Below the pieces are notes generated by a model. That model was not told the DNA's origin, did no database searches, and saw only the letters and a list, made by a program, of their open reading frames with translations. Positions 195-35,863 of a stretch of 64,000 nt of DNA are shown here, one piece after another (positions within the stretch are counted from its first letter, which is position 1; each line of letters begins with the position of its first letter). Position numbers and translations under genes: made by a program. This DNA comes from an uncultured Candidatus Saccharibacteria bacterium (GTDB lineage Bacteria > Patescibacteriota > Doudnabacteria > UBA920). Location of the stretch: NCBI GenBank assembly GCA_964600695.1, contig CAZRKK010000002.1, positions 115,900-179,899 on the forward strand. Reading direction: 5' to 3'.

Positions 195-935
195 ATGTAT
201 GAAAAAGAACTTCAAAATTTAGGGCTTTCCGAAAAAGAAGCCAAGGTTTACACCACCGCTTTAGAGCTTGGTGCAGACACAGTTCAGAATATTGCCAAGC
301 AATCCGGCATAAACCGTGCAACTACTTATGTACAAATCGACTCATTAACCGAGAAGGGTTTAATGAGTGAATTCGATAAGGGCAAAAAAACCTATTATGT
401 TGCCGAGTCACCAAACCGTTTAAAGAATTTACTATCTTCAATCGAAAAGGAGTTGGAAATAAAGAAAACAGAAGCAGGTACAATTATTCCTGGTCTTTTA
501 TCTTTATTTGAAGGAATGGGTGATCGTCCAAAAGTTAGATTTTTTGAAGGCATGGATGGGGCCACAGCTATGCGCGACGAATTCTTAAAGGGTAAGCATA
601 AGTTTATTTATGGCTTTATCAACTATGATAAATTATTTGAATTTTATCCAGATCAACAAACAGGTTATACAGATCTTCGTGCAAAGAAGGGGATTAAGAC
701 TAAAGTTTTCTATTCCAGTAAAGTGCCAGTAAAAGATGCGAATAGTAAGCAATTTTTAAGAGAAGCTAAATATATTTCTCCAAAAAAGATTGATATTTCA
801 GCTTCGGTCACTCTTTCTGGAAATAAAATTGCTATCTCAACTTACTCAAAGAATCCGACTAGCGTAGTAATCGAAAGTGAAATTATGGCTAAAACCTTTG
901 TTTCTATCTTCGAATATTTTTGGTCAATTAGTTAA
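195..935 (+). CDS. TrmB-family sugar-responsive HTH transcriptional regulator
   Basis: The N-terminal wHTH (GLSEKEAKVYTTALELGADTVQNIAKQSGINRATTYVQIDSLTEKGL) is followed by a TrmB C-terminal-like domain. Confidence 0.6.
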   Translation: MYEKELQNLGLSEKEAKVYTTALELGADTVQNIAKQSGINRATTYVQIDSLTEKGLMSEFDKGKKTYYVAESPNRLKNLLSSIEKELEIKKTEAGTIIPGLLSLFEGMGDRPKVRFFEGMDGATAMRDEFLKGKHKFIYGFINYDKLFEFYPDQQTGYTDLRAKKGIKTKVFYSSKVPVKDANSKQFLREAKYISPKKIDISASVTLSGNKIAISTYSKNPTSVVIESEIMAKTFVSIFEYFWSIS

Positions 936-968
936 AAATACACTGAATTTACTAGGTTATTTAAAAAA

Positions 969-996
969 AACTGTCATACACTATTGACAGTTTTTA
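969..996 (+). terminator. rho-independent terminator after the trmB-like gene
   Basis: Hairpin ctgtca-tacactat-tgacag is followed by TTTTT. Confidence 0.6.
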
Positions 997-1012
997 GTTT
1001 TTATGATAATAT
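984..1012 (+). promoter_or_regulatory. sigma70 promoter (TTGACA, then an extended -10 TGaTAATAT)
   Basis: ttgacagtttttagtttttatgataatat precedes the micro-ORF transcription unit. Confidence 0.45.
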
Positions 1013-1066
1013 TACTCCGATTTAAACATCCGTTACGAGGAATCTAACTAGAGGAGGTTCATCAGT

Positions 1067-1087
1067 ATGACAGGTGGGAACTGGTAA
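1067..1087 (+). CDS. micro-ORF MTGGNW (6 aa) with a perfect SD
   Basis: GAGGAGG lies 7 nt upstream of ATG. The stop is immediately followed by the GC hairpin GGGGCC-ACGG-GGCCCC (1089-1104). Confidence 0.3.
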   Translation: MTGGNW

Positions 1088-1205
1088 GGGGGCCACGGGG
1101 CCCCAAACCCAACTACTATCTGGAGTAATAGACCCGAATCAAAACTAGATACTGGTAATGTGTGTAAGTCGAAAAACAGAAATAAACCAAAACGGAGGTA
1201 AGGAA

Positions 1206-1247
1206 ATGAAGAACTATATCAATTTCGGCGGCGACGTCGCGTGGTAA
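1206..1247 (+). CDS. micro-ORF MKNYINFGGDVAW (13 aa) with a strong SD
   Basis: GGAGGTAAGG lies 5 nt upstream of ATG. Like micro-ORF1 it ends in ...W-stop. Confidence 0.3.
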   Translation: MKNYINFGGDVAW

Positions 1248-1314
1248 GCTAAACCCGTAAAAACGGTTCAGCAGATAATTCTGCTCTGCAAAATCAACAA
1301 TATGTTGGTTACGA

Positions 1315-1377
1315 GCGTCAATCAAATGAGATCATGAAGCTATGCTTTGGAATCAAATGATTGACGCTTTTTATTTT
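1315..1377 (+). terminator. rho-independent terminator closing the ~360-nt micro-ORF transcript
   Basis: A 10-bp stem (gcgtcaatca / tgattgacgc) with a ~33-nt loop is followed by tttttatttt. Confidence 0.55.
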
Positions 1378-1495
1378 ACCTAAAAATTTTACCCATGTTT
1401 ATATAATAGTCATGCTATGGTATCATAAAATCCACGTGGTTTATCCTTTATTTAAGCCAATATTTAACTACTAGGAATATTTTTGTCATTAGGTC

Positions 1496-1523
1496 TTGAC
1501 AAAATAAATATTTCATGTATACT
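1496..1523 (+). promoter_or_regulatory. sigma70 promoter (TTGACA-16-TATACT) driving the GC-rich ORF-free segment
   Basis: TTGACA at 1496-1501 and TATACT at 1518-1523. Confidence 0.5.
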
Positions 1524-1529
1524 GAGTTG

Positions 1530-2990
1530 TAAGCTGAAATTACCAAAAACAAATAACACTTTTTTAACTCTCGTATTCACTCGTTACTGTAGCGGGAAGA
1601 ATAATTCTGGCAGGCGACTAGACTCTACGGGGTCAATAATCATATCAATGTTCGCCGCACAGAATACTGAGAATTATAAAGGGTGTTATAAGTGGCTGGT
1701 GTTTCGGCTTTTAAAATACTCAAAGCCTGTCTGCAGTGGAGACCATGCATACAAATAAAATTGATGTAATGGTTATCAGCTTACTCCATTTGTAGACAGC
1801 CTGGCGGAAATTGAATTATTTCATTTTTTGCCGGACTGTCTACAACAGACAAAAATATAAAAAGGTTAGCTAGTGTGTGTCTAGCAGTTTACCAAGCGTT
1901 GACCAACTATCCTAGGATATGTCCGCAAAAACTAAACCCACTACACACAAAATTTTTAAGGAGGGGTATTTATCAGCACAATACTCCTAAGCAATCGATT
2001 GGCAAGAGGCCAACGACCCTGGAAATTTACCTGGCAGGGTAAGTTTCCAAAGCTTCGCTACTATGCGGTAGCAGCGGTTTACTGAATTGCCTGTGGAGCA
2101 ATTTTGTTAAATCGTAAACAGTAAGCGTGATGGATGGCCTGACCACAAAGGCTGCCATGTGCTGTTCCCGCCCGAACTTCTAGTTTGGGCTTCTATCCGA
2201 GAACATTACAAGTTAGTGTTCTCAGAGTGAATAAACTAATTCCTGTTCGCAACTCCTTGGCAGAAATTTATATCTAAATATTTGGATCTAAATTTCCGCC
2301 TTGGAGAGCGCGATAGCAGAGTAATCTGTGATAGGTGATACGTCTTAAACACAACGTATTGCCCGGGATTCGCCCGAAATCTCCACAAACTTGGATCCGC
2401 TGAAGAAGCCTAAGCAACTTCTACGCTCAGCCTTACAAGTTTGCCCAGAGAGTTTGGCGACTCTCGAAGGGAATTAGATGATGATTTGGCTCTAGGGCAT
2501 AAGCACCCCGACGAGTATTTGTTTTCCTTGGAAAGCATTTGGCCGCCAAGCCCAAAGAATCGGAAAGTTGGTCCTCACCTGGTCGCTTGCCGCAAGCAAG
2601 TCCAGCCTGAGGAAGTCTCATTACCAACAATGTGTCGCTAAACCATAGGAAAACAATGGTTGAAGGGCAAATATGAGAATAGGTCATGAAGCGTTGAGCC
2701 ATGCCGTAAACCTTTCTTCGGAAGGGAGAAAAACGGACTCGGGAATGCCTCCTGAGTACAGCGAAAGCCCTGATCCGGCCAGTAACTGTAATAAGCTTCA
2801 TAAAATCCTTCGGGATGACTGAAACGGTTGTTAGTGACTGCTTCGCAAGAAGTGTGGAAACTAACGGGTTAAAAGGAGCAGCGGTTACCATGCCGAGATG
2901 AAAATGTCTCGGTTAGCGCCGAGAAAAATCTGTTCCAAGAAAAAGATATTTGTCTTAGTCTTTTTCAAAAATCTCTTTAGGAGGAGAATT
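1530..2990 (+). ncRNA. candidate large structured non-coding RNA or intron-like element (unclassified)
   Basis: About 1.45 kb with GC near 50% in a ~36% GC genome. No ORF longer than 152 aa in any frame, and none with an SD. Many GC-rich nested hairpins (e.g. GAGAAC...GUUCUC at 2199-2223, GGCAGAAAUUU...AAAUUUCCGCC at 2258-2298). It has its own promoter. Confidence 0.35.
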
Positions 2991-2994
2991 TATT

Positions 2995-3261
2995 ATGAAA
3001 GTTATTTCGTTGTCCGCACTGAGTGCGGAGAAGCGAGTTGCCATCGCGGCGGCTCGGGTGACTGGAACGAATCCAGTCGTAGTCGGTAACTTTTGCACGC
3101 GGTGCAAATGTTGCGGACGCAACCAGCCGATCAAGGGGTTTGCCCCGGATCCGGCTCGGAAGCTCCGTGGGGTGGTGTGTGCACACTGTGCACAGCTGCG
3201 GACTCCGCGCTTGAGCCGTAACTCAGGCAAACAGAGAGATGTAACTCTGCAAAAAATTTAG
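2995..3261 (+). CDS. small Cys-rich (zinc-ribbon-like) protein, 88 aa
   Basis: Perfect SD AGGAGG lies 8 nt before ATG. Motifs CTRCKCC and CAHC are present. The gene is GC-rich. Confidence 0.5.
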   Translation: MKVISLSALSAEKRVAIAAARVTGTNPVVVGNFCTRCKCCGRNQPIKGFAPDPARKLRGVVCAHCAQLRTPRLSRNSGKQRDVTLQKI

Positions 3262-3597
3262 GTTTAAGTATTGTACCTTGAAACATAAACAATACATTCT
3301 TTTTTGAAAAGAGAAGTTCACTTGTCTTTTCAAAATTGAAAGTTTAGATACAAATCTTGTGGGGGTCTATGATAAAAATAATATTTCTCGGCGCTAGCGC
3401 TGGCGGAGCTATTGGTTAGCTCAGATCTAAATTAAAATATGTTTTTATATGGCAGTTTATTTATCTGCGTCCGGGAAGGATTCAAATAATTAAACTGTGT
3501 ATATCTGCATTCATGTGTTGTCGACATTTTTGCATACTATTAGGCCTATAGTATGAGTCGATGGAGTACAACATATAAAAACATATTGTCGCTTTAA

Positions 3598-3624
3598 GCT
3601 CGATTAATTTCGAGCATCTTTTTT
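3598..3624 (+). terminator. rho-independent terminator
   Basis: gctcga-ttaatt-tcgagc is followed by atcTTTTTT. Confidence 0.55.
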
Positions 3625-3654
3625 AGAACAGAATCCTGATTGTGTTTTGAAAAA

Positions 3655-3804
3655 GGGGATGACAGGCTTTCGACAGAAGACTAGCTTGGTTATGAAAGTA
3701 GGGTAAAACGTCTTTGATTTGAACCTGCGTGCAGTCGCAAGACTGTTGGATCTAATTGAGATTTTTCGTTCTGGATCCGGGTTCGAATCCCGGCATCTCC
3801 ACCA
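3655..3804 (+). ncRNA. tmRNA-like (ssrA-like) tRNA-like element, 150 nt, with no recognisable tag ORF
   Basis: The 5' end GGGGAUGACAGGCUUUCGACAG carries the tmRNA GGNUUCGAC motif. The 3' end GGAUCCGGGUUCGAAUCCCGGCAUCUCCACCA gives a T-arm and CCA. The 7-bp acceptor stem GGGGAUG / CAUCUCC pairs fully with one G-U. Confidence 0.5.
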
Positions 3805-3821
3805 CTTCTTTAGGAGGAAAT

Positions 3822-4103
3822 ATGAAAATATTTAGTTACTTGTTTTGGGCAGTATTTGTACCGTTTTGGTTTGTTGCAGTGGTTGTGCCGTTTTTTTCTG
3901 TGATGTTTGGGTTTGATTCAGTGATGAAGCACAACACTGATCGCACATGGACCTTGTACGGTTTATGGGTCATGGACTCAGTCATTGCAGACCGGTACTA
4001 CATCTTTATGGTGGCTACTGCATTTGTGATGGCGATTCTGTTTAGGATGGAATGGGTATTTAGTTCCAAGCTAAATAAAAAGGAGCGATTGAATCGTCAA
4101 TGA
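3822..4103 (+). CDS. small polytopic membrane protein (93 aa)
   Basis: SD AGGAGG precedes ATG at 3822 and the protein has 3 hydrophobic helices. The ORF-track start at 3756 lies inside the tmRNA-like element and is rejected. Confidence 0.55.
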   Translation: MKIFSYLFWAVFVPFWFVAVVVPFFSVMFGFDSVMKHNTDRTWTLYGLWVMDSVIADRYYIFMVATAFVMAILFRMEWVFSSKLNKKERLNRQ

Positions 4104-4192
4104 TCGCGTGGGCTCAACAGCGCCTGGAAACAGAAGCTGTTTTTTTATACCCTTCAAAATGATATAATTCAGGAGTAATTAATCTTGTATAT

Positions 4193-5464
4193 ATGGAACT
4201 AGGACCCCGACAATCTGAATATTTAGGTAAGCAATTTAAAACATTTAATGAGTTGGGCCATAAAAAATTTATGGAAGGCCGGGATTTTGATATTGCTGTC
4301 ATCAAGGAATTTTCTATAGAGTACCTTCGAAAAAATCATAAAAAGAACGAAGGTAATAATGGTGTGATTTTTAAACTAGAACTTCAGGATCCTAACAATG
4401 AGAATGAAACTGTTGAGTATGCTGGTAAGTTGCTAAAGGTGGGGAGTTACGAAGATTTAAAAGCGGAATATGATAATCAAATTGCTGCTTATGAAATTTT
4501 AGAAGAAGAAATAGCAAATGGTGCAGACCCTTTGAATTATAGTAAAATCCCTAGACCGTGTTTTTGTTTTCATCTTGAGTTAGATGATGAATTGAAAAAG
4601 CATCTTCAAGAAGAGGGGATTAAAAGCTCTGGCGATACACAAGGACTTCTTTTAATGGATTGGATTGATGGAGAGGATGTCGCCACTCATCTCTTTAAGG
4701 AAGCATTAAAACGTAAAGAAAGTAGATTCTTAGACACTATCAAGCCAGGAGATTTTAATCAGTTACATCAGGCTGTCGGATTAGAGTTTGAGTTTGCTAA
4801 GCCTGGTGGCAAAGCTACTCGAGCAGGTGATAAAATATTCGAAGAACGAAAAGTTGCAGCTGATAATGAATCTAAAATTTATAAGTTTTTAAAGAAGAGT
4901 GGTTATATTTTTCCTAAAAATACTCTTGAACAAATTCGAAATACTCTAGACTTGTTTAGCAGTAAAGGCTTAGAGATGTGGGATAGTCACGCTCGCAATG
5001 TAATGTTGGATCCAGAAGGTGATCGACCATACTTAATCGACTTTGCTCCTCAAAAGAAGCAACTTGGCGGCGAAGCAGCAACCTTAGACCCTTATGTTTT
5101 GATAAGACAGTTAGAAAGTCTTACTACAACTCCACAAGAAGATCATCAGGCTGAAATAGAATCTAAGTTTACTGAATGGGACGCTAATTACCAAAAGAAA
5201 ACCCAAGACCCACGTTGGGTAGCTGCTTTTATAAATAAAGCACCAACTGGTGAGAAATTCCTAAAACATGCCCAGTACGAAATTGCTAGTGGTGTGGATG
5301 AAGATCGTGTGCAGGGAAATATTTACGCCTTATTTTATAAAGCTAATCAAAATGAGATTAGTCCAGAAGCAGTCTTAGGTTTGTTAACAGAGTTATCTAG
5401 CAAAGAAAATCTTCCTTGGAAAAAAGCTAAAATAGATTTAGCAATAAAAAAAGCGGGTAAATAA
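4193..5464 (+). CDS. atypical protein-kinase-like (PKL/APH-fold) protein
   Basis: A beta3 Lys region (AGKLLKV), a hinge (LLLMDWIDGEDV), a catalytic loop (WDSHARNVML) and a DFG-like IDFA are all present. Confidence 0.45.
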   Translation: MELGPRQSEYLGKQFKTFNELGHKKFMEGRDFDIAVIKEFSIEYLRKNHKKNEGNNGVIFKLELQDPNNENETVEYAGKLLKVGSYEDLKAEYDNQIAAYEILEEEIANGADPLNYSKIPRPCFCFHLELDDELKKHLQEEGIKSSGDTQGLLLMDWIDGEDVATHLFKEALKRKESRFLDTIKPGDFNQLHQAVGLEFEFAKPGGKATRAGDKIFEERKVAADNESKIYKFLKKSGYIFPKNTLEQIRNTLDLFSSKGLEMWDSHARNVMLDPEGDRPYLIDFAPQKKQLGGEAATLDPYVLIRQLESLTTTPQEDHQAEIESKFTEWDANYQKKTQDPRWVAAFINKAPTGEKFLKHAQYEIASGVDEDRVQGNIYALFYKANQNEISPEAVLGLLTELSSKENLPWKKAKIDLAIKKAGK

Positions 5465-6585: not shown

Positions 6586-6990
6586 ATGTCAGAAGAAAAC
6601 AAGACAGTAGAAGTTCCTGCTAAGTTCGTAGAACTAGTTGGACAAATCGAAAAGCTTTCCGTATTGGAACTTTCCGAATTAGTAAAAGTTTTAGAAGAAA
6701 AGTTTGGTGTTAGTGCAGCTGCTCCTATGATGATGGGTGCTATGCCTGCTGCTGGTGGCGCTGCCGCTGCAGAAGAAAAAGATGAATTCAGTGTAGAATT
6801 AACAGCTGCTGGCGAAAGCAAGATCAATGTGATCAAAGTTGTTCGCGAAGTTACTGGTCTTGGCTTAAAAGAAGCTAAGGATATGGTAGACGGCGCTCCT
6901 CAAGTTATCAAAGAAAACGCTCCAAAAGCAGAAGCTGAAGAGTTGAAGAAGAAACTTGAAGAAGCTGGTGGTACTGTTACTCTTAAGTAA
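6586..6990 (+). CDS. rplL: 50S ribosomal protein L7/L12
   Basis: It shows an N-terminal dimerisation domain, an Ala/Gly/Pro hinge and the C-terminal [15 protein letters not shown]...TVTLK. Confidence 0.95.
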
Positions 6991-7022
6991 TCAACCCTAA
7001 CTTATACAGTTATACTAAAAAT

Positions 7023-7046
7023 GACCTCCATACGGAGGTCTTTTTT
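7023..7046 (+). terminator. rho-independent terminator after rplL
   Basis: gacctcc-atac-ggaggtc is followed by TTTTTT. Confidence 0.7.
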
Positions 7047-7145
7047 GTTATCCAAGACTATAAATGTTACCCACAGGTTGTATTTGCGTATAGATAAGAA
7101 ACCATGCACAATTAATGTAAGACAGGAATTAATAAGTAGGTCTCG

Positions 7146-8267
7146 ATGAAAAAAAACTTATCAGTTTGTATATTAATCGCCATGGTTCTTGGTCTGCTCT
7201 TTATTGTTTTTAAGTCTGAAAAAACTCGGCCTAGAATTTCTGGAGCAGTGATTCCACACCATAATATAGTGGCCAATCAAAGGCAGCAATTTTTTACACA
7301 GTTGGCCGAGCAGGTTGGAGTTGGGAATTACCCAGAGACAATAATATTGGTATCGCCTAATCATTACAATGCTGGTTTCGGTAAAATTCAAACTTCCAAC
7401 CAAAACTGGGAATTGAGCGTAGGTTCAATTAACCATGATGCAGATGTTGTGAGTGATCTGTTAAGTGATGGTGAAGATAATGAAGAGAGCGTCGCGACAA
7501 ACGAGCCGGGAAGTTTTACAGACGAACATGGTATATACAACATACTCGGTGATATCCATAATACTTTTCCTGACGCAAAGATAGTGCCTATTATATTAAA
7601 GGATCCATCTCAGGAAGAGCTAGTTGAATTGCAGAAATCATTAGCCAAGTCTTGTCATAATTGTTTAATGTTGGCTTCGGTAGACTTTTCGCACTATCAA
7701 CCTGCTCGGATTGCCGAATTACATGATCAAAAAACTATTCGTGATTTACAAAATTTAGATACGGATGATGTTTTAAAGAATGCCGAAGTTGATTCTGGAG
7801 CATCATTGGCGCTTTTGATGATGTGGGCTAAAGCTAATCAGACAATGCGATTTAATTTAGTTAACAATACTAATTCTAGCTTGCTCTTAAATGACCCAAG
7901 TTTAGAGGGCACGAGTCATGTGTTTGGATGGTATCAAACTGGGCGGAAAGTTCGGCCAGAACAGTTTACTAGTTTTGTAATAACTAAAAACCTGAATGTT
8001 GGAGTAGAAAATAGAGCAATTTGGGGTACGGATCTGGTTGTGAATCAACCTCTAATTAATTCCAGTGACCCTAATCTATCATTAGATAAGGTTGTAATAT
8101 TCGGCAAGCTCACAAAGAACGGTATGGATTTATTTGGATTTCCTCTCGACCCCAAAGATCCTACAAAGCTGATGACAAAGTCAGAATTGTCTTTCGATAA
8201 TTTGTCATCGTCAATAATAAAGAGTAAAATTAAATTATTAATTAATCAAAACAATGAACGAAAATAA
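7146..8267 (+). CDS. membrane-anchored MEMO1-family (class III extradiol dioxygenase subunit B-like) protein
   Basis: An N-terminal TM segment, GAVIPHHNIV, VSPNHY and the family motif DFSHYQ are present. Confidence 0.45.
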   Translation: MKKNLSVCILIAMVLGLLFIVFKSEKTRPRISGAVIPHHNIVANQRQQFFTQLAEQVGVGNYPETIILVSPNHYNAGFGKIQTSNQNWELSVGSINHDADVVSDLLSDGEDNEESVATNEPGSFTDEHGIYNILGDIHNTFPDAKIVPIILKDPSQEELVELQKSLAKSCHNCLMLASVDFSHYQPARIAELHDQKTIRDLQNLDTDDVLKNAEVDSGASLALLMMWAKANQTMRFNLVNNTNSSLLLNDPSLEGTSHVFGWYQTGRKVRPEQFTSFVITKNLNVGVENRAIWGTDLVVNQPLINSSDPNLSLDKVVIFGKLTKNGMDLFGFPLDPKDPTKLMTKSELSFDNLSSSIIKSKIKLLINQNNERK

Positions 8268-15591: not shown

Positions 15592-15695
15592 ATTTATTAC
15601 TAGCTAGTCGGCTCGCAGTAAATCGAGAATTTATTAAATAATTGATGATTTAAGTTGGTTCTATCCGCTTAAATTTATCAGGAGAGCAAAGAACA

Positions 15696-18098
15696 ATGCG
15701 CAACATTTTCTTTAACCGTCAGTCAAGCAAACTTGGCCTGTTAGGTAGTTTGGTTGCGGTCGTTGCCGTGGCTTTAGTCTTAGCTTTAGTTCCTCAAAAA
15801 ACTAATATTAAGACACTCGCAGAAAACTGTGTAAATCCACCAACAACACCGACTCTCAACTACTGGCCGATTACGTATGACGACGTCAACACTCCGTTAT
15901 GTCACGACTTCCCAGCTATCGATGCTGCAGTCTACAACCCTAACGGTTCTCCAGTCTATTCACAAAGTGAAGCAGATTGGAACAATGGTTTGAATTTAAA
16001 TGCTGGTCAAGAAGGTGTAGCTTTGATGTATATCCACAACGGAGCTGCAAACAACTTACCAGGTAACCAAACCATGGCTCGTAATGTTAAAATTACAACC
16101 AACACTGATACTAGTGTAGGTAGTACTCATAACATTGCAGTTCGCTTCGCTGGTGATAACACCAACGTTGTAAACAAATCTTTTGCTGTTCATACTCCTG
16201 CTAATGCTCATTTGGAAATTGTTCCAAACAGTGGCTTTATGTACGACTATGAAGGTAACTTGGTTTTAGATCAACAAAACTTAAACTTAGGTAACTCTAC
16301 CTATACCTTAGGTGATCTTGATGCTTGTTTCGAATACAGTGTATTCTTAACATTCCGCTTCAAGGTTGTTGGTCCACCTGCACCAACAAATACTACTTTG
16401 AGCATCACTAAGCAAGTTCGCAGTTTAGACCGCAATACTAGCTTTGCTCCATCTGTAAATGTTGAACGTAACGAACGTGTACAGTACAAAGCTATTGTAA
16501 AAAACACTGGTACTACTACTGCTACTAACGTAGTCTTTACAGATAACGGTGTAGCTGGCATTCAAATCGAGTCTGGTTCTGTCACACTTGATGGCGGTCC
16601 TGCTCAACGTTCATTACCAGGTATCCTTCCTTTAGGGGATATGACTCCTGGAAGTGAAAGAACAATCATCTATAACGCACGAGCTACTAACACTGATGGT
16701 ACCTTTGTTAACACTGCAACTGCTGTAGCTAATAACGCTCCAAGTGTTTCTGCTACTGCTACTGTAATAGTAACTCATGTTAATCCTCCTGCTGGCGTTA
16801 TCGCTATTACTAAGTTAGTTAAGAATAACAATGCTGGTACTAGCTATGCCGATTCTGTCGGTGCTAAAACTGGTGAATGGACTAACTTTAAAGTAACTGT
16901 GACTAACACTGGTAATTCTGCTGTAAACAATGTCAAAATTACTGACCCGATTCCATCTGGTCTACAATATGACAGTGCTTCAGTAGTTACTACAGGATCT
17001 GTTAGCTTCGCTAACAATACTTTAACTGTAAACTTTGGTACTTTGGCCCCTGGTCAAAGCCGTACTGTAGAATTTGCTACTCAGGTAACTCGTTCTACAG
17101 CAGGTCAGATTTGTAACATTGCTACCGCTAGCGGTGATAATGTTCCTTCTGTAACTGCCGATGCTTGTGTTAATGTAACAAATCCTCCAGTAGAAACTCG
17201 TGTTCTTGCTGTTAAGAAATTCGTTAAGAACCTTAGCACAGGCACAGCGTATAGTGATGATTCAGTACAAGCTCGTACTGGCGAACGTGTAAACTTTAAA
17301 ATCTCTGTTACCAATAATGGTAATGCAGTTATAAATAACGTTCGTGTAACAGACGCTATCCCAAGTGGTCTTCAATTTGATGACTCCTTTACAGGTGATG
17401 GTGCTCCTAGTTTCACTGTACCTACTTTGAGCGTCGACTTTGGTAGCTTAGCTGCTGGTCAAACCAAGACAGTAGAATTTGCTGCTAAGGTATTAGCTGT
17501 AGCTCCTGCTAGCATTTGTAACGTTGCGAAAGCAACTGGTACAGGTGTTGCAGAAGTTACTGACAATGCTTGTGTAACAGTTTACACTACACCTAAACCA
17601 GGTGAACCAAACATTGTTCAAGTTAAGTCTGCTTTCAACAACACTAAAAATGTTGATGCTACAACTGTGAATGCTGCTCGTGGTGACACTATCACTTTCA
17701 CTTTAAAGACTACCAATAATGGTACTGCTGATGCAGTTAACTATGTAATCACAGATGATCTTTCTGGCGTATTGCCATTAGCTGATCTTATCGATAATGG
17801 TGGTGCTACTTTAAATGGTAACATCTTAAGTTATCCTGCGATCACTATCAAGCCAGGTGAAACTGTAACTAAAACTTTCGTAGTTAAAGTTAAGTCTAGC
17901 CTTGCCCCAACCTTGTCTTATCAAATTCGTAACACTTACGGAAATACCGTAGTAATCAATGTTCCTGGTAATATTATTTACCAAGCTCCTACTACTGGTG
18001 CTGCTGCGACTTCTGCTGCTGTATTCGCTGGTTTAATCACCATCGCTGCTGTAGCTGTCCGCCGTGGTAAAGACATCATGAGCTTTATCTTCGCATAA
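15696..18098 (+). CDS. large surface protein with tandem DUF11-type repeat domains and a sortase-like C-terminal sorting signal
   Basis: An N-terminal signal/TM, ~140-aa tandem repeats (e.g. ITDPIPSGLQYD / VTDAIPSGLQFD), and a C-terminal APTTG motif followed by a hydrophobic stretch and RRGKD. Confidence 0.6.
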   Translation: MRNIFFNRQSSKLGLLGSLVAVVAVALVLALVPQKTNIKTLAENCVNPPTTPTLNYWPITYDDVNTPLCHDFPAIDAAVYNPNGSPVYSQSEADWNNGLNLNAGQEGVALMYIHNGAANNLPGNQTMARNVKITTNTDTSVGSTHNIAVRFAGDNTNVVNKSFAVHTPANAHLEIVPNSGFMYDYEGNLVLDQQNLNLGNSTYTLGDLDACFEYSVFLTFRFKVVGPPAPTNTTLSITKQVRSLDRNTSFAPSVNVERNERVQYKAIVKNTGTTTATNVVFTDNGVAGIQIESGSVTLDGGPAQRSLPGILPLGDMTPGSERTIIYNARATNTDGTFVNTATAVANNAPSVSATATVIVTHVNPPAGVIAITKLVKNNNAGTSYADSVGAKTGEWTNFKVTVTNTGNSAVNNVKITDPIPSGLQYDSASVVTTGSVSFANNTLTVNFGTLAPGQSRTVEFATQVTRSTAGQICNIATASGDNVPSVTADACVNVTNPPVETRVLAVKKFVKNLSTGTAYSDDSVQARTGERVNFKISVTNNGNAVINNVRVTDAIPSGLQFDDSFTGDGAPSFTVPTLSVDFGSLAAGQTKTVEFAAKVLAVAPASICNVAKATGTGVAEVTDNACVTVYTTPKPGEPNIVQVKSAFNNTKNVDATTVNAARGDTITFTLKTTNNGTADAVNYVITDDLSGVLPLADLIDNGGATLNGNILSYPAITIKPGETVTKTFVVKVKSSLAPTLSYQIRNTYGNTVVINVPGNIIYQAPTTGAAATSAAVFAGLITIAAVAVRRGKDIMSFIFA

Positions 18099-35580: not shown

Positions 35581-35656
35581 CTACTCAATTAGTTTTTTTG
35601 GGATTTTTTTGTCTGTAGCCCTTGACAAGATTTAAAAACCTTGCTATGGTCTGGGT

Positions 35657-35836
35657 ACAACAAGAGGAACAATCGGTAGGGACTTAGAAAAATGTGCCTC
35701 AGAACTTCACACCTTACAGGGCTTCGTTGCAGTTTAACGAAGGCTTCAGTCACAATGAACTTTGTGCTGATCGAGAGATCGTGGAACTCCATTTTTCTAA
35801 AATAAAAAGGCCGCAATGCACTCCGCGGCCTTTTTT
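35657..35836 (+). ncRNA. candidate ~180-nt sRNA (unclassified; 6S-like size)
   Basis: TTGACA-16-TATGGT (35623-35650) upstream. No plausible ORF. Ends at the ggccgcaatgcactccgcggcc + TTTTTT terminator (35809-35836, which also serves convergent scpB). Confidence 0.25.
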
Positions 35837-35863
35837 ATTTTGCGCTATTAAGTTTTACTGTTA

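Follow-up and report, generated by a model that had tools for sequence, protein, structure and literature searches.

A predicted small RNA family of Patescibacteria carries two micro-open reading frames with co-evolving last codons

Introduction

Short open reading frames (ORFs) behind strong Shine-Dalgarno (SD) sequences are known from several bacterial systems, among them the trpL, pheL and leuL attenuators, the leaders of the resistance genes vmlR, lmo0919 and erm, and minigenes such as lambda bar and the two-codon axe-txe and LEE1 ORFs. Here we report on a stretch of 64,000 nucleotides (nt), hereafter the window, from an uncultured Candidatus Saccharibacteria bacterium (GenBank assembly GCA_964600695.1, contig CAZRKK010000002.1, forward-strand positions 115,900 to 179,899). 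Downstream of a TrmB-like regulator gene, the window contains what appears to be a stand-alone small RNA gene of this ultra-small, Saccharibacteria-type bacterium from the candidate phyla radiation (CPR), which we call RNA A (~1019-1378, + strand). Judging by its sequence, RNA A belongs to an undescribed RNA family adjoining the regulator gene, and it is unusual in that its ORFs are as short as two codons, in that each RNA carries two of them, and in that their last codons co-evolve.

RNA A shares with the trpL, pheL and leuL attenuators a short SD-driven ORF with regulatory codons for one amino acid (Trp, Leu or Phe), as well as a layout in which ribosome position would compete with RNA hairpins starting at the ORF end. 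An SD-driven ORF with a codon for the putatively sensed amino acid was found in both ORFs, one Trp codon each, across 33 loci. It differs from the attenuators in having one regulatory codon per ORF, always last, in two separate ORFs of 2-18 codons. It also lacks a downstream operon, and its terminator is not part of the switch according to fold predictions with masked ribosome footprints; neither a ribosome-dependent terminator nor a position in the 5' leader of an operon was found for RNA A. The corresponding amino-acid biosynthetic operons are not known from the host lineage. The three-codon upstream ORF (uORF) of vmlR, uORF(MIN), and the lmo0919 and erm leaders resemble RNA A in their few-codon ORFs, strong SD, alternative structures and use of the ribosome as sensor, but they are 5' leaders of resistance genes that respond to drugs, whereas RNA A stands alone and conserves the amino acid of its last codon (PMC9226507). 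No resistance gene (ABCF, methyltransferase) follows RNA A in the window or its relatives.

Minigenes combine a strong SD with an ORF of 2-6 codons, a form also taken by the Met-Trp-TAA ORFs of some relatives of RNA A. Known minigene effects vary with the identity of the last sense codon, with ORF length, with the strength of the SD and with the stop codon, and the most toxic are two-codon, strong-SD, UAA-terminated ORFs that tie up the tRNA of the last sense codon (PMC8708949). With 6 codons here and 2-5 in most relatives, the first ORF of RNA A lies within the minigene range of 2 to ~6 codons; the second (13 codons) lies outside it. Described natural regulatory minigenes act in cis on a neighboring cistron, whereas RNA A has no such cistron and combines two ORFs in one structured RNA, with deep conservation and co-evolving last codons.

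The peptides of dual-function small RNAs (sRNAs) such as SgrS/SgrT, RNAIII/hld and SR1/SR1P are 26-43 residues long, and the RNAs themselves carry defined base-pairing seeds. RNA A is like them a promoter-to-terminator small RNA, structured and apparently translated, and at the level of sequence prediction it is an independent transcript with its own promoter and terminator, but its ORFs span just 2-18 codons. TnaC is a 24-residue peptide that detects free Trp within the exit tunnel, requires W12, D16 and P24, and governs Rho termination. RNA A recalls it in a putative Trp-related event on the ribosome where a small ORF ends, beside the stop codon, but its Trp-ending peptides of 2-18 residues have none of TnaC's defining features. 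A T-box riboswitch (stem I specifier loop and T-box antiterminator) was not detected by Rfam search of positions 900-4200 at E <= 10 or of 9 related loci at the gathering score. Nor does the locus form an RRNPP-type pair: the neighboring gene encodes a TrmB/TrmBL2-type winged-helix protein, and peptides of 2-6 residues are too short for a signal sequence. By analogy, RNA A would work most like a leader-peptide or short-uORF ribosome sensor, yet it has neither a terminator that depends on the ribosome nor a regulated gene downstream. In form it is also a minigene and a dual-function sRNA, minus the modes of action demonstrated for those.

According to a 2022 transcriptome paper on TM7x, Saccharibacteria were without validated small RNAs (bioRxiv 10.1101/2022.03.25.485537). 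Our literature search found no paper on an RNA like RNA A, on a TrmB regulon in Patescibacteria or on noncoding RNAs of these bacteria, and no described regulatory RNA of this kind for Patescibacteria generally.

Results

Anatomy of the RNA A locus

The following features define the unit in the window.

984-989, + strand: -35 box TTGACA, read from sequence, with a 17-nt spacer to the -10 box
984-1012, + strand: sigma-70-type promoter of RNA A with TG-extended TAATAT, the extended -10 element TGATAATAT lying at 1004-1012
1051-1057, + strand: first SD (SD1), GAGGAGG, 9 nt from the ATG at 1067
1067-1087, + strand: micro-ORF 1 (ORF1), ATG ACA GGT GGG AAC TGG TAA, encoding MTGGNW
1089-1104, + strand: GC hairpin, GGGGCC (1089-1094) with GGCCCC (1099-1104), beginning 1 base past the ORF1 stop
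1194-1198, + strand: second SD (SD2), GGAGG within CGGAGGTAAGG, 7 nt from the ATG at 1206
1206-1247, + strand: micro-ORF 2 (ORF2), encoding MKNYINFGGDVAW in 13 codons and ending GCG TGG TAA
1314-1378, + strand: intrinsic terminator, a long interrupted hairpin AGCGUCAAUCA...UGAUUGACGCU (1314-1368) followed by the T-run TTTTTATTTT (1369-1378)

The promoter has 10/12 consensus matches plus the TG in a promoter scan and is kept in an alignment of relatives; it would place the transcription start at ~1019. The terminator begins 66 nt past ORF2, and the predicted transcript contains no downstream protein gene. Micro-ORFs of this type are scarce, as just 18 SD-preceded ATG micro-ORFs of 2-25 codons occur on both strands of the window. 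Three of these end in Trp, and two of the three are ORF1 and ORF2, on one strand and 118 nt apart.

A first-pass annotation made from the sequence alone had described a self-contained promoter-to-terminator unit, and both ends are found where it placed them. Its two micro-ORFs are there as well, each with a GGAGG-containing SD and a Trp codon before the stop. The GC hairpin that it saw abutting the first stop lies one base away and is kept as a structure, with differing sequence, between lineages. It had also taken the unit to be unattached to a downstream operon, in agreement with the terminator and the separate promoter (TTGACA-16-TATACT, 1496-1523) that follows it. The comparison with relatives that it proposed as a check shows both micro-ORFs and the Trp-then-stop context to be conserved, and because the unit recurs in relatives we regard the pattern as real rather than a product of chance.

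RNA A accompanies a TrmB-like gene across Patescibacteria

Related loci were retrieved through the neighboring TrmB gene, by exact-protein look-ups, one genome scan and one metagenome scan. An RNA A unit is present in 33 loci (31 distinct RNAs, with 62 micro-ORFs tabulated), all from Patescibacteria and spread over ~30 lineages, and lies +68 to +237 nt past the TrmB stop codon on the same strand. All lineages in which TrmB identity to the window's protein reaches 49% or more have the unit, as do most at 47-48% (L016 being without it); a Doudnabacteria metagenome-assembled genome (MAG; L018) with a TrmB of 43% identity also carries it. Apart from L018, the listed loci with TrmB identity of 44% or less have no SD-preceded Trp-ending micro-ORF at the same strand and position. 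The closest genome records, at 98% and 91% identity, are MAGs labelled Candidatus Saccharibacteria, and the carriers as a whole span several candidate groups, with Saccharibacteria-, Paceibacterota- and Doudnabacteria-labelled MAGs among them.

The members share a common layout. A -35 box embedded in TGTCA-N8-TGACA is followed by a short leader, a GGAGG(TG) SD with its micro-ORF and a GC-rich hairpin. A second SD and micro-ORF come 70-143 nt later (median 94), and a variable 3' region and a strong terminator complete the unit. Rfam gave no match to the RNA A unit, either for the window and 9 related loci at the gathering score or for positions 900-4200 at E <= 10.

The micro-ORFs behave as reading frames

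Start codons in the 62 family ORFs comprise 61 ATG and a single GTG, and a GGAGG-type SD lies 3-12 nt ahead of 61 of them (spacing mode 6-7 nt), the sole ORF without one being ORF2 of L059. The stops are TAA in 33, TAG in 19 and TGA in 10; the use of all three indicates that what is preserved is a stop and not a particular sequence. Length varies, always in frame: ORF1 has 2, 3, 4, 5, 6 or 8 codons, and ORF2 has 3-18 (46 in one lineage). ORF1 orthologs read MTGGNW, MKSFGGNW, MKGGNW, MKKSGGNW, MKGGSW, MNW, MGW, MGGW, MGGGW, MSW and MW, among others, and those of ORF2 include MKNYINFAGGDVAW, MFNKNILGGDIAW, MKLSKRFYSRCTGGDPSW, MRLSRHVYREGGTSW, MSKLYSCSGNVGW, MNRQNKEHGGNW, MHW, MNW and MGGW. The form MKNYINFAGGDVAW, from the 98% relative, differs from the window by an in-frame insertion of one codon.

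Substitutions within the window's own group include synonymous third-position changes (GGT GGG/GGT GGT/GGC GGG/GGT GGA, AAC/AAT, GAC/GAT and GCG/GCT/GCA). The 46-codon ORF2 (2453-2593 in L134-L136; 30 codons from an internal ATG, per the JGI call) contains three tandem GGNW units, FGGNW-IASS-GGNW-VI-GGNW-IVKP, of which the middle copy differs from the outer two only synonymously. A search of the protein collection for homologs of this 46-residue product returned just the protein itself. Together, these signals are those of translation and not of a fixed RNA motif, and they amount to strong indirect evidence, short of proof, that the micro-ORFs are under selection as reading frames.

The last sense codons of the two ORFs co-evolve

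The final sense codon is TGG in 49 of the 62 ORFs. In four intermediate lineages ORF1 is cut down to ATG TGG TAA (Met-Trp-stop), which leaves little besides the decoding of UGG. The non-Trp pairs (ORF1 and ORF2, respectively) are MGGAL and MGAL (two lineages), MGL and MGGL, MGL and MWGL, MGLF and MGAF, and MAF and MSF. Of the 30 RNAs with two ORFs, 28 have matching final amino acids. On a neighbor-joining tree of the TrmB proteins, Trp is ancestral and was replaced in four independent switches (W to L twice, L to F, and W to F), every one of which hit both ORFs together. Final Leu is encoded by CTG, CTT, CTC or TTG and final Phe by TTT or TTC; this variety points to a constraint on the amino acid, or on the charged tRNA pool, and not on a nucleotide word. 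Comparison across the family thus shows the last codons of the two ORFs to co-evolve, and it suggests that the last-codon amino acid is a tunable specifier that must match between them.

RNA structure and ribosome footprints

On the + strand, the RNA spanning 1018-1378 has a predicted folding energy of -110 kcal/mol (z = -5.9 versus shuffles), compared with z = -2.7 for the - strand. Its minimum free energy (MFE) fold contains the following elements.

1019-1171, + strand: domain 1, a rod in which the 5' leader (1019-1045) pairs with 1141-1171 and encloses SD1, ORF1 and the apical hairpin
1071-1122, + strand: stem-loop including the 3' half of ORF1, with CAGGUGG (1071-1077) paired to CUAUCUG (1116-1122), UGG (1082-1084) paired to CCA (1109-1111), and an apex at 1089-1104

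Family structure was judged by per-sequence folding statistics; hairpin lengths are too divergent for a trustworthy alignment. Domain 1, taken from the transcription start to ORF2, folds below shuffles in 23 of 23 members (z = -1.6 to -6.6, mean -4.1), and across these members its sequences are unrelated outside the SD and ATG. The design of the rod recurs: SD1, the start codon and ORF1 occupy the 5' strand, the apex is GC-rich, and an anti-SD-like run on the 3' strand pairs with SD1. The apical hairpin, unrelated in sequence across the family, begins 0-9 nt (median 2) past the first stop, and SD2 directly follows the 3' end of the rod. The probability that SD1 is unpaired has a family median of 0.16 and is 0.58 in the window. 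An RNAalifold consensus of 6 relatives, in the window's group, contains the apical hairpin, with the GGUGG and UGG of ORF1 paired downstream, and 6 of its 14 pairs are kept through double changes. RNA A has no conserved single-stranded sequence besides the SD and anti-SD.

We modeled the effect of ribosomes by masking their footprints in fold predictions. In the window, a footprint at the UGG of ORF1, where a ribosome holding this codon in its A site would sit over the 5' strand of the stem, removes ~24 kcal/mol of structure, and the terminator hairpin (1314-1368) is unchanged when footprints at the UGG of ORF1, ORF2 or both are forced single-stranded. We also considered a model of alternative pairing, with the 3' arm of the rod bound to SD1-ORF1 in one state and to SD2-ORF2 in the other, which would account for the matching last codons; same-species pairs fell at the median of cross-species pairs, in a test of low power.

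The TrmB-like regulator and the neighboring large RNA

Several features outside RNA A bear on its regulation.

195-935, + strand: TrmB-like winged-helix regulator gene, 246 amino acids (Pfam TrmB, E = 1.3e-13)
966-995, + strand: operator-like palindrome AAAAACTGTCA-N8-TGACAGTTTTT, with its core (972-989) over the -35 box of RNA A, invariant in 4 relatives
1484-1523, + strand: second palindrome copy TGTCATTAGGTCTTGACA and large-RNA promoter (TTGACA, 16-nt spacer, TATACT), separate from RNA A

The TrmB-like protein has a full-length profile match to the TrmBL2 structures 5bqt/5box and 233 homologs, all from Patescibacteria/CPR-type sources, and its gene is the only protein gene that always accompanies RNA A. 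Exact TGTCA-N8-TGACA occurs in the window only at 972-989 and 1484-1501, over the -35 boxes of RNA A and the large RNA, and palindromes are found at both RNA promoters in most related loci. We infer from this arrangement that the TrmB-like protein binds the palindromes and that the RNAs form one regulon. The palindrome at 966-995 may double as a weak terminator of the TrmB gene. Copies with one mismatch lie at 161-178, upstream of the TrmB gene, and at 35610-35627. The former, TGTCAATGGAACGTAACA, is accompanied by a TATAAT box (183-188) close to the TrmB start codon at 195 (159-197 overall), and the TrmB mRNA may be leaderless and autoregulated. The latter, TGTCTGTAGCCCTTGACA, overlaps the -35 box of a third promoter-to-terminator unit (35600-35848), which continues with ~190 nt that contain no convincing ORF, ends in a strong terminator (GGCCGC...GCGGCC and a T-run), and has a folding z of -2.5 and no Rfam match; it may belong to the same regulon.

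The large RNA (~1526-2960), a genuine structured RNA, is a GC-rich, ORF-free stretch of ~1.4 kb that has a consensus promoter to itself and matches nothing in Rfam. Conservation in relatives amounts to 73-83% identity in blocks. Its first 340 nt are predicted to form a closed domain in which GUAAGCUGA pairs with UCAGCUUAC; 19 of the 96 predicted pairs are compensatory in six sequences. Direct pairing between RNA A and the large RNA was considered and rejected, as the best duplex (-46.5 kcal/mol) lies within the range obtained with shuffled RNA A sequences (-36.8 to -47.4). Given a duplex no better than shuffles, a terminator that ignores ribosome footprints and a large RNA with its own promoter, RNA A is not a cis leader of the large RNA. 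The link between the two would instead be shared regulation via the same operator-like palindrome, not attenuation.

Distant TrmB loci of Patescibacteria (L019, L035, L075, L113, L115, L089, L098 and others) are arranged differently, with two palindromes ~140 nt apart and divergent transcription. A small RNA convergent with TrmB lies on their minus strand, within the interval that separates the TrmB stop from the first palindrome; it has an anti-SD:SD hairpin, CCUCCU-N5-8-AGGAGG, followed by an ORF of the form ATG GGN (N) X stop (MGAG, MGGH, MGF, MGI, MGV, MGW and others), often with a GTG-started ORF of ~30 codons (MSKS...). The other divergent transcript is a different large RNA (GCCGGAAAGUAAAGUUUGG...GCCGUCUAGAUAAU...). 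The opposite-strand MG-x RNA may be a candidate relative of RNA A with a different last residue.

Under the standard code, coding is dense throughout the window apart from 935-3655. An alternative genetic code for this gene-poor stretch of 2.7 kb was rejected, since table 11 gives dense coding everywhere else. The large RNA is directly followed, at 2995-3261, by an ORF of 88 codons with 60% GC, a strong SD and a Cys-rich product (CxxCxCC...CxxC) that has no Pfam hit. As a conserved partner of the RNAs this ORF was rejected: it is not conserved, a weak match was seen in L015 only, and L001 and L003 carry at that position an unrelated, mutually homologous ORF of 81 amino acids. A tmRNA-like gene of ~150 nt (3655-3804) has the acceptor stem, the T-arm and the 5' sequence GGGGAUGACAGGCUUUCGAC, with a middle of 90 nt where 314 nt are usual. 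Three relatives conserve the gene, with copies including L003 17910-18063 and L001 ~15630-15783. Its Rfam tmRNA scores (52 and 66 bits) exceed the gathering score; it was not called by ARAGORN, and no convincing tag reading frame was identified in it. In L018, a gene for a TROVE-domain (Ro60-like) protein (6834-8132; Pfam E = 1e-17) comes directly after the RNA-rich stretch, a neighbor that may point to some connection of the large RNA with RNA quality control.

Discussion

A putative sensor of charged tRNA-Trp

Our preferred, although tentative, reading is that RNA A is a ribosome-operated sensor of charged tRNA-Trp whose two inputs read the same amino acid. Ribosomes would load on nascent RNA A and meet a single UGG within 1-17 codons. 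With charged tRNA-Trp plentiful, termination would be immediate, and the RNA would close into a long hairpin in which SD1, ORF1 and the post-stop sequence are paired. With charged tRNA-Trp scarce, the ribosome would wait at the UGG, held from behind by the SD and by SD-like GGNGG codons, and in covering the 5' strand of the hairpin it would keep the RNA open. Closing of the rod by the SD1/ORF1 strand would hinge on dwell time at the Trp codon, and the two ORFs would serve as concordant inputs for one aminoacyl-tRNA. Expression would probably be set by the TrmB-like protein via the TGTCA-N8-TGACA palindrome common to RNA A and the 1.4-kb RNA. If two inputs must read the same amino acid, the concordant switches would be accounted for. 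Such a sensor also fits the Met-Trp-stop forms, the presence of SD-like GGNGG codons 3-9 nt ahead of the UGG and the hairpin abutting the stop, and three-codon uORFs acting as ribosome-stall sensors, for example uORF(MIN) of vmlR, provide a precedent (PMC9226507). Because RNA A has its own constitutive terminator, the output would have to act in trans or through the stalled ribosome.

Several observations weigh against a sensor of this kind. Its weak point is that RNA A has no visible output or target, and classical hungry-codon sensors act in cis on a downstream gene, which RNA A does not. Both SDs are largely base-paired in equilibrium folds, so that translation may be rare. Not every RNA conforms to the last-codon rule: L130/L131 carry MSN and MFS, and the 46-codon ORF2 of L134-136, with its three internal GGNW units, ends in Pro. 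Trp, Leu and Phe are all bulky and hydrophobic and are joined by single-base steps (UGG to UUG to UUY or CUN), so the side chain, in the peptide or in the peptidyl-transferase center, could matter equally as well as amino-acid supply. The preceding Gly/Asn codons are conserved too, and a pure one-hungry-codon model needs none of them.

Alternative readings

The last-codon data could also reflect futile translation or a peptide product. RNA A might be a regulated natural minigene that, once derepressed, cycles ribosomes on ORFs of 2-6 codons, so that drop-off of peptidyl-tRNA-Trp or the trapping of ribosomes ties up the single tRNA-Trp species, and where a cell has very few ribosomes these as well, and brakes translation. 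We consider this unlikely, despite the match to the toxic design of artificial and lambda-type minigenes (very strong SD, very short ORFs with two codons worst, last-codon dependence and UAA stops; PMC8708949). All four Met-Trp ORFs end in TAA, the two ORFs target the same amino acid and, for Trp and Phe, the same tRNA, and the operator over the -35 box together with the masked SD1 resembles the tight control expected of a toxic element. However, the window's own group has ORF2s of 12-18 codons, a length at which little drop-off is expected; the Leu codons of L017 (CTG, TTG) require different tRNAs, and those of L059 (CTG, CTT) probably do as well; and toxicity in E. coli appears only with limiting peptidyl-tRNA hydrolase. 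A fuller form of the idea, for which we also see little probability, makes RNA A a built-in, repressor-controlled translation brake: derepressed, it would trap the single tRNA-Trp species and a sizeable share of ribosomes on two futile ORFs of 2-13 codons, and it and the co-regulated 1.4-kb RNA would jointly act as a switch for dormancy or starvation across one Patescibacteria clade. If true, the brake would contain the shortest conserved translated genes known (Met-Trp-stop). It is likewise doubtful that the micropeptides themselves are the product, with ...GG(N/D)x0-2W or C-terminal Trp/Leu/Phe peptides acting as an intracellular or secreted signal, such as a ligand of the TrmB-like regulator. 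The tiny gene always lies beside the regulator gene, an arrangement resembling the regulator-plus-peptide-gene pairs of Gram-positive quorum sensing; GGNW and GGD[VI]AW are kept at the amino-acid level with synonymous changes, the three tandem GGNW repeats of the L134-136 ORF2, with synonymous differences only in the middle copy, point the same way, and concordant switches within the hydrophobic W/L/F series are reminiscent of pherotype co-evolution. TrmB columns 120 and 182 differ in all switch clades, but this co-variation is non-significant, as 5.8% of random clade triples equal it. Moreover, Met-Trp or Met-Gly-Trp would carry almost no specificity and no export signal, length and sequence vary over 2-18 residues with the last residue alone in common, and the heavily conserved RNA structure and SD masking would be superfluous for a plain peptide gene.

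The remaining alternatives, in which the RNA binds ribosomes without productive coding or acts as a cis attenuator, explain less. In the noncoding case, which we judge improbable, the SD and AUG would be 5' stabilizers or a 30S/70S decoy (a ribosome sponge), or the GGAGG/CCUCC helices would be structural, with function residing in the folded RNA. RNA A is indeed strongly structured, predicted folds mostly pair the two SDs with anti-SD-like strands, and strong SDs near 5' ends stabilize RNAs with no need of a peptide (PMC8708949), but an in-frame stop in 62 of 62 ORFs, drawn from all three stop codons, would be left unexplained, as would the conserved last codon and its concordant change in both ORFs. 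Still less probable is a cis leader in which Trp-dependent stalling sets read-through of the 1314-1378 terminator into the 1.4-kb RNA. The attenuator-like layout (short ORF, hairpins, terminator) and the constant position of RNA A upstream of the large RNA in this clade, in the same orientation, are what such a leader would show. Against it, the terminator lies well past ORF2 and does not respond to footprints masked at either UGG, a conserved consensus promoter and operator that belong to the large RNA itself follow 118 nt further on, and the distant TrmB loci have their candidate-relative MG-x micro-ORF RNA on the opposite strand, divergent from the large RNA. The first-pass annotation had likened the unit to a stand-alone dual-function sRNA or to an attenuator-type leader detached from its genes, and had raised Trp-dependent stalling as a way to regulate the adjacent GC-rich RNA. 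A pause at the Trp codon survives as the most economical reading of the last codon; direct cis control is unsupported, given the terminator indifferent to masked footprints, the separate conserved promoter and a duplex no better than with shuffled sequences.

Known RNAs and recoding events were also considered as identities for RNA A and rejected. RNase P, signal recognition particle RNA, 6S RNA and the coding piece of a two-piece tmRNA gave no model hits, and the SD/AUG/stop architecture does not fit them. A programmed +1 frameshift of the prfB type (SD-like sequence, 3-nt spacer, codon, stop) resembles ORF1 of the window's group in its geometry, but re-pairing on GGU is impossible for tRNA-Trp, and other members do not show this geometry.

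Implications

Gene callers skip all of the RNA A ORFs, which makes the family invisible in current annotations. RNA A would be a deeply conserved candidate small RNA with a clear anatomy, in a little-studied bacterial radiation, and its ORFs suggest that selection can maintain reading frames of just two or three codons throughout one Patescibacteria clade. The presumed regulon is small, consisting of the TrmB-like protein, RNA A, the 1.4-kb structured RNA and perhaps a third RNA, and it offers a route to understanding the large RNA. If the tRNA-Trp sensor proposed here is correct, bacteria that do not produce their own amino acids could monitor host supply with ribosomes and one small RNA.

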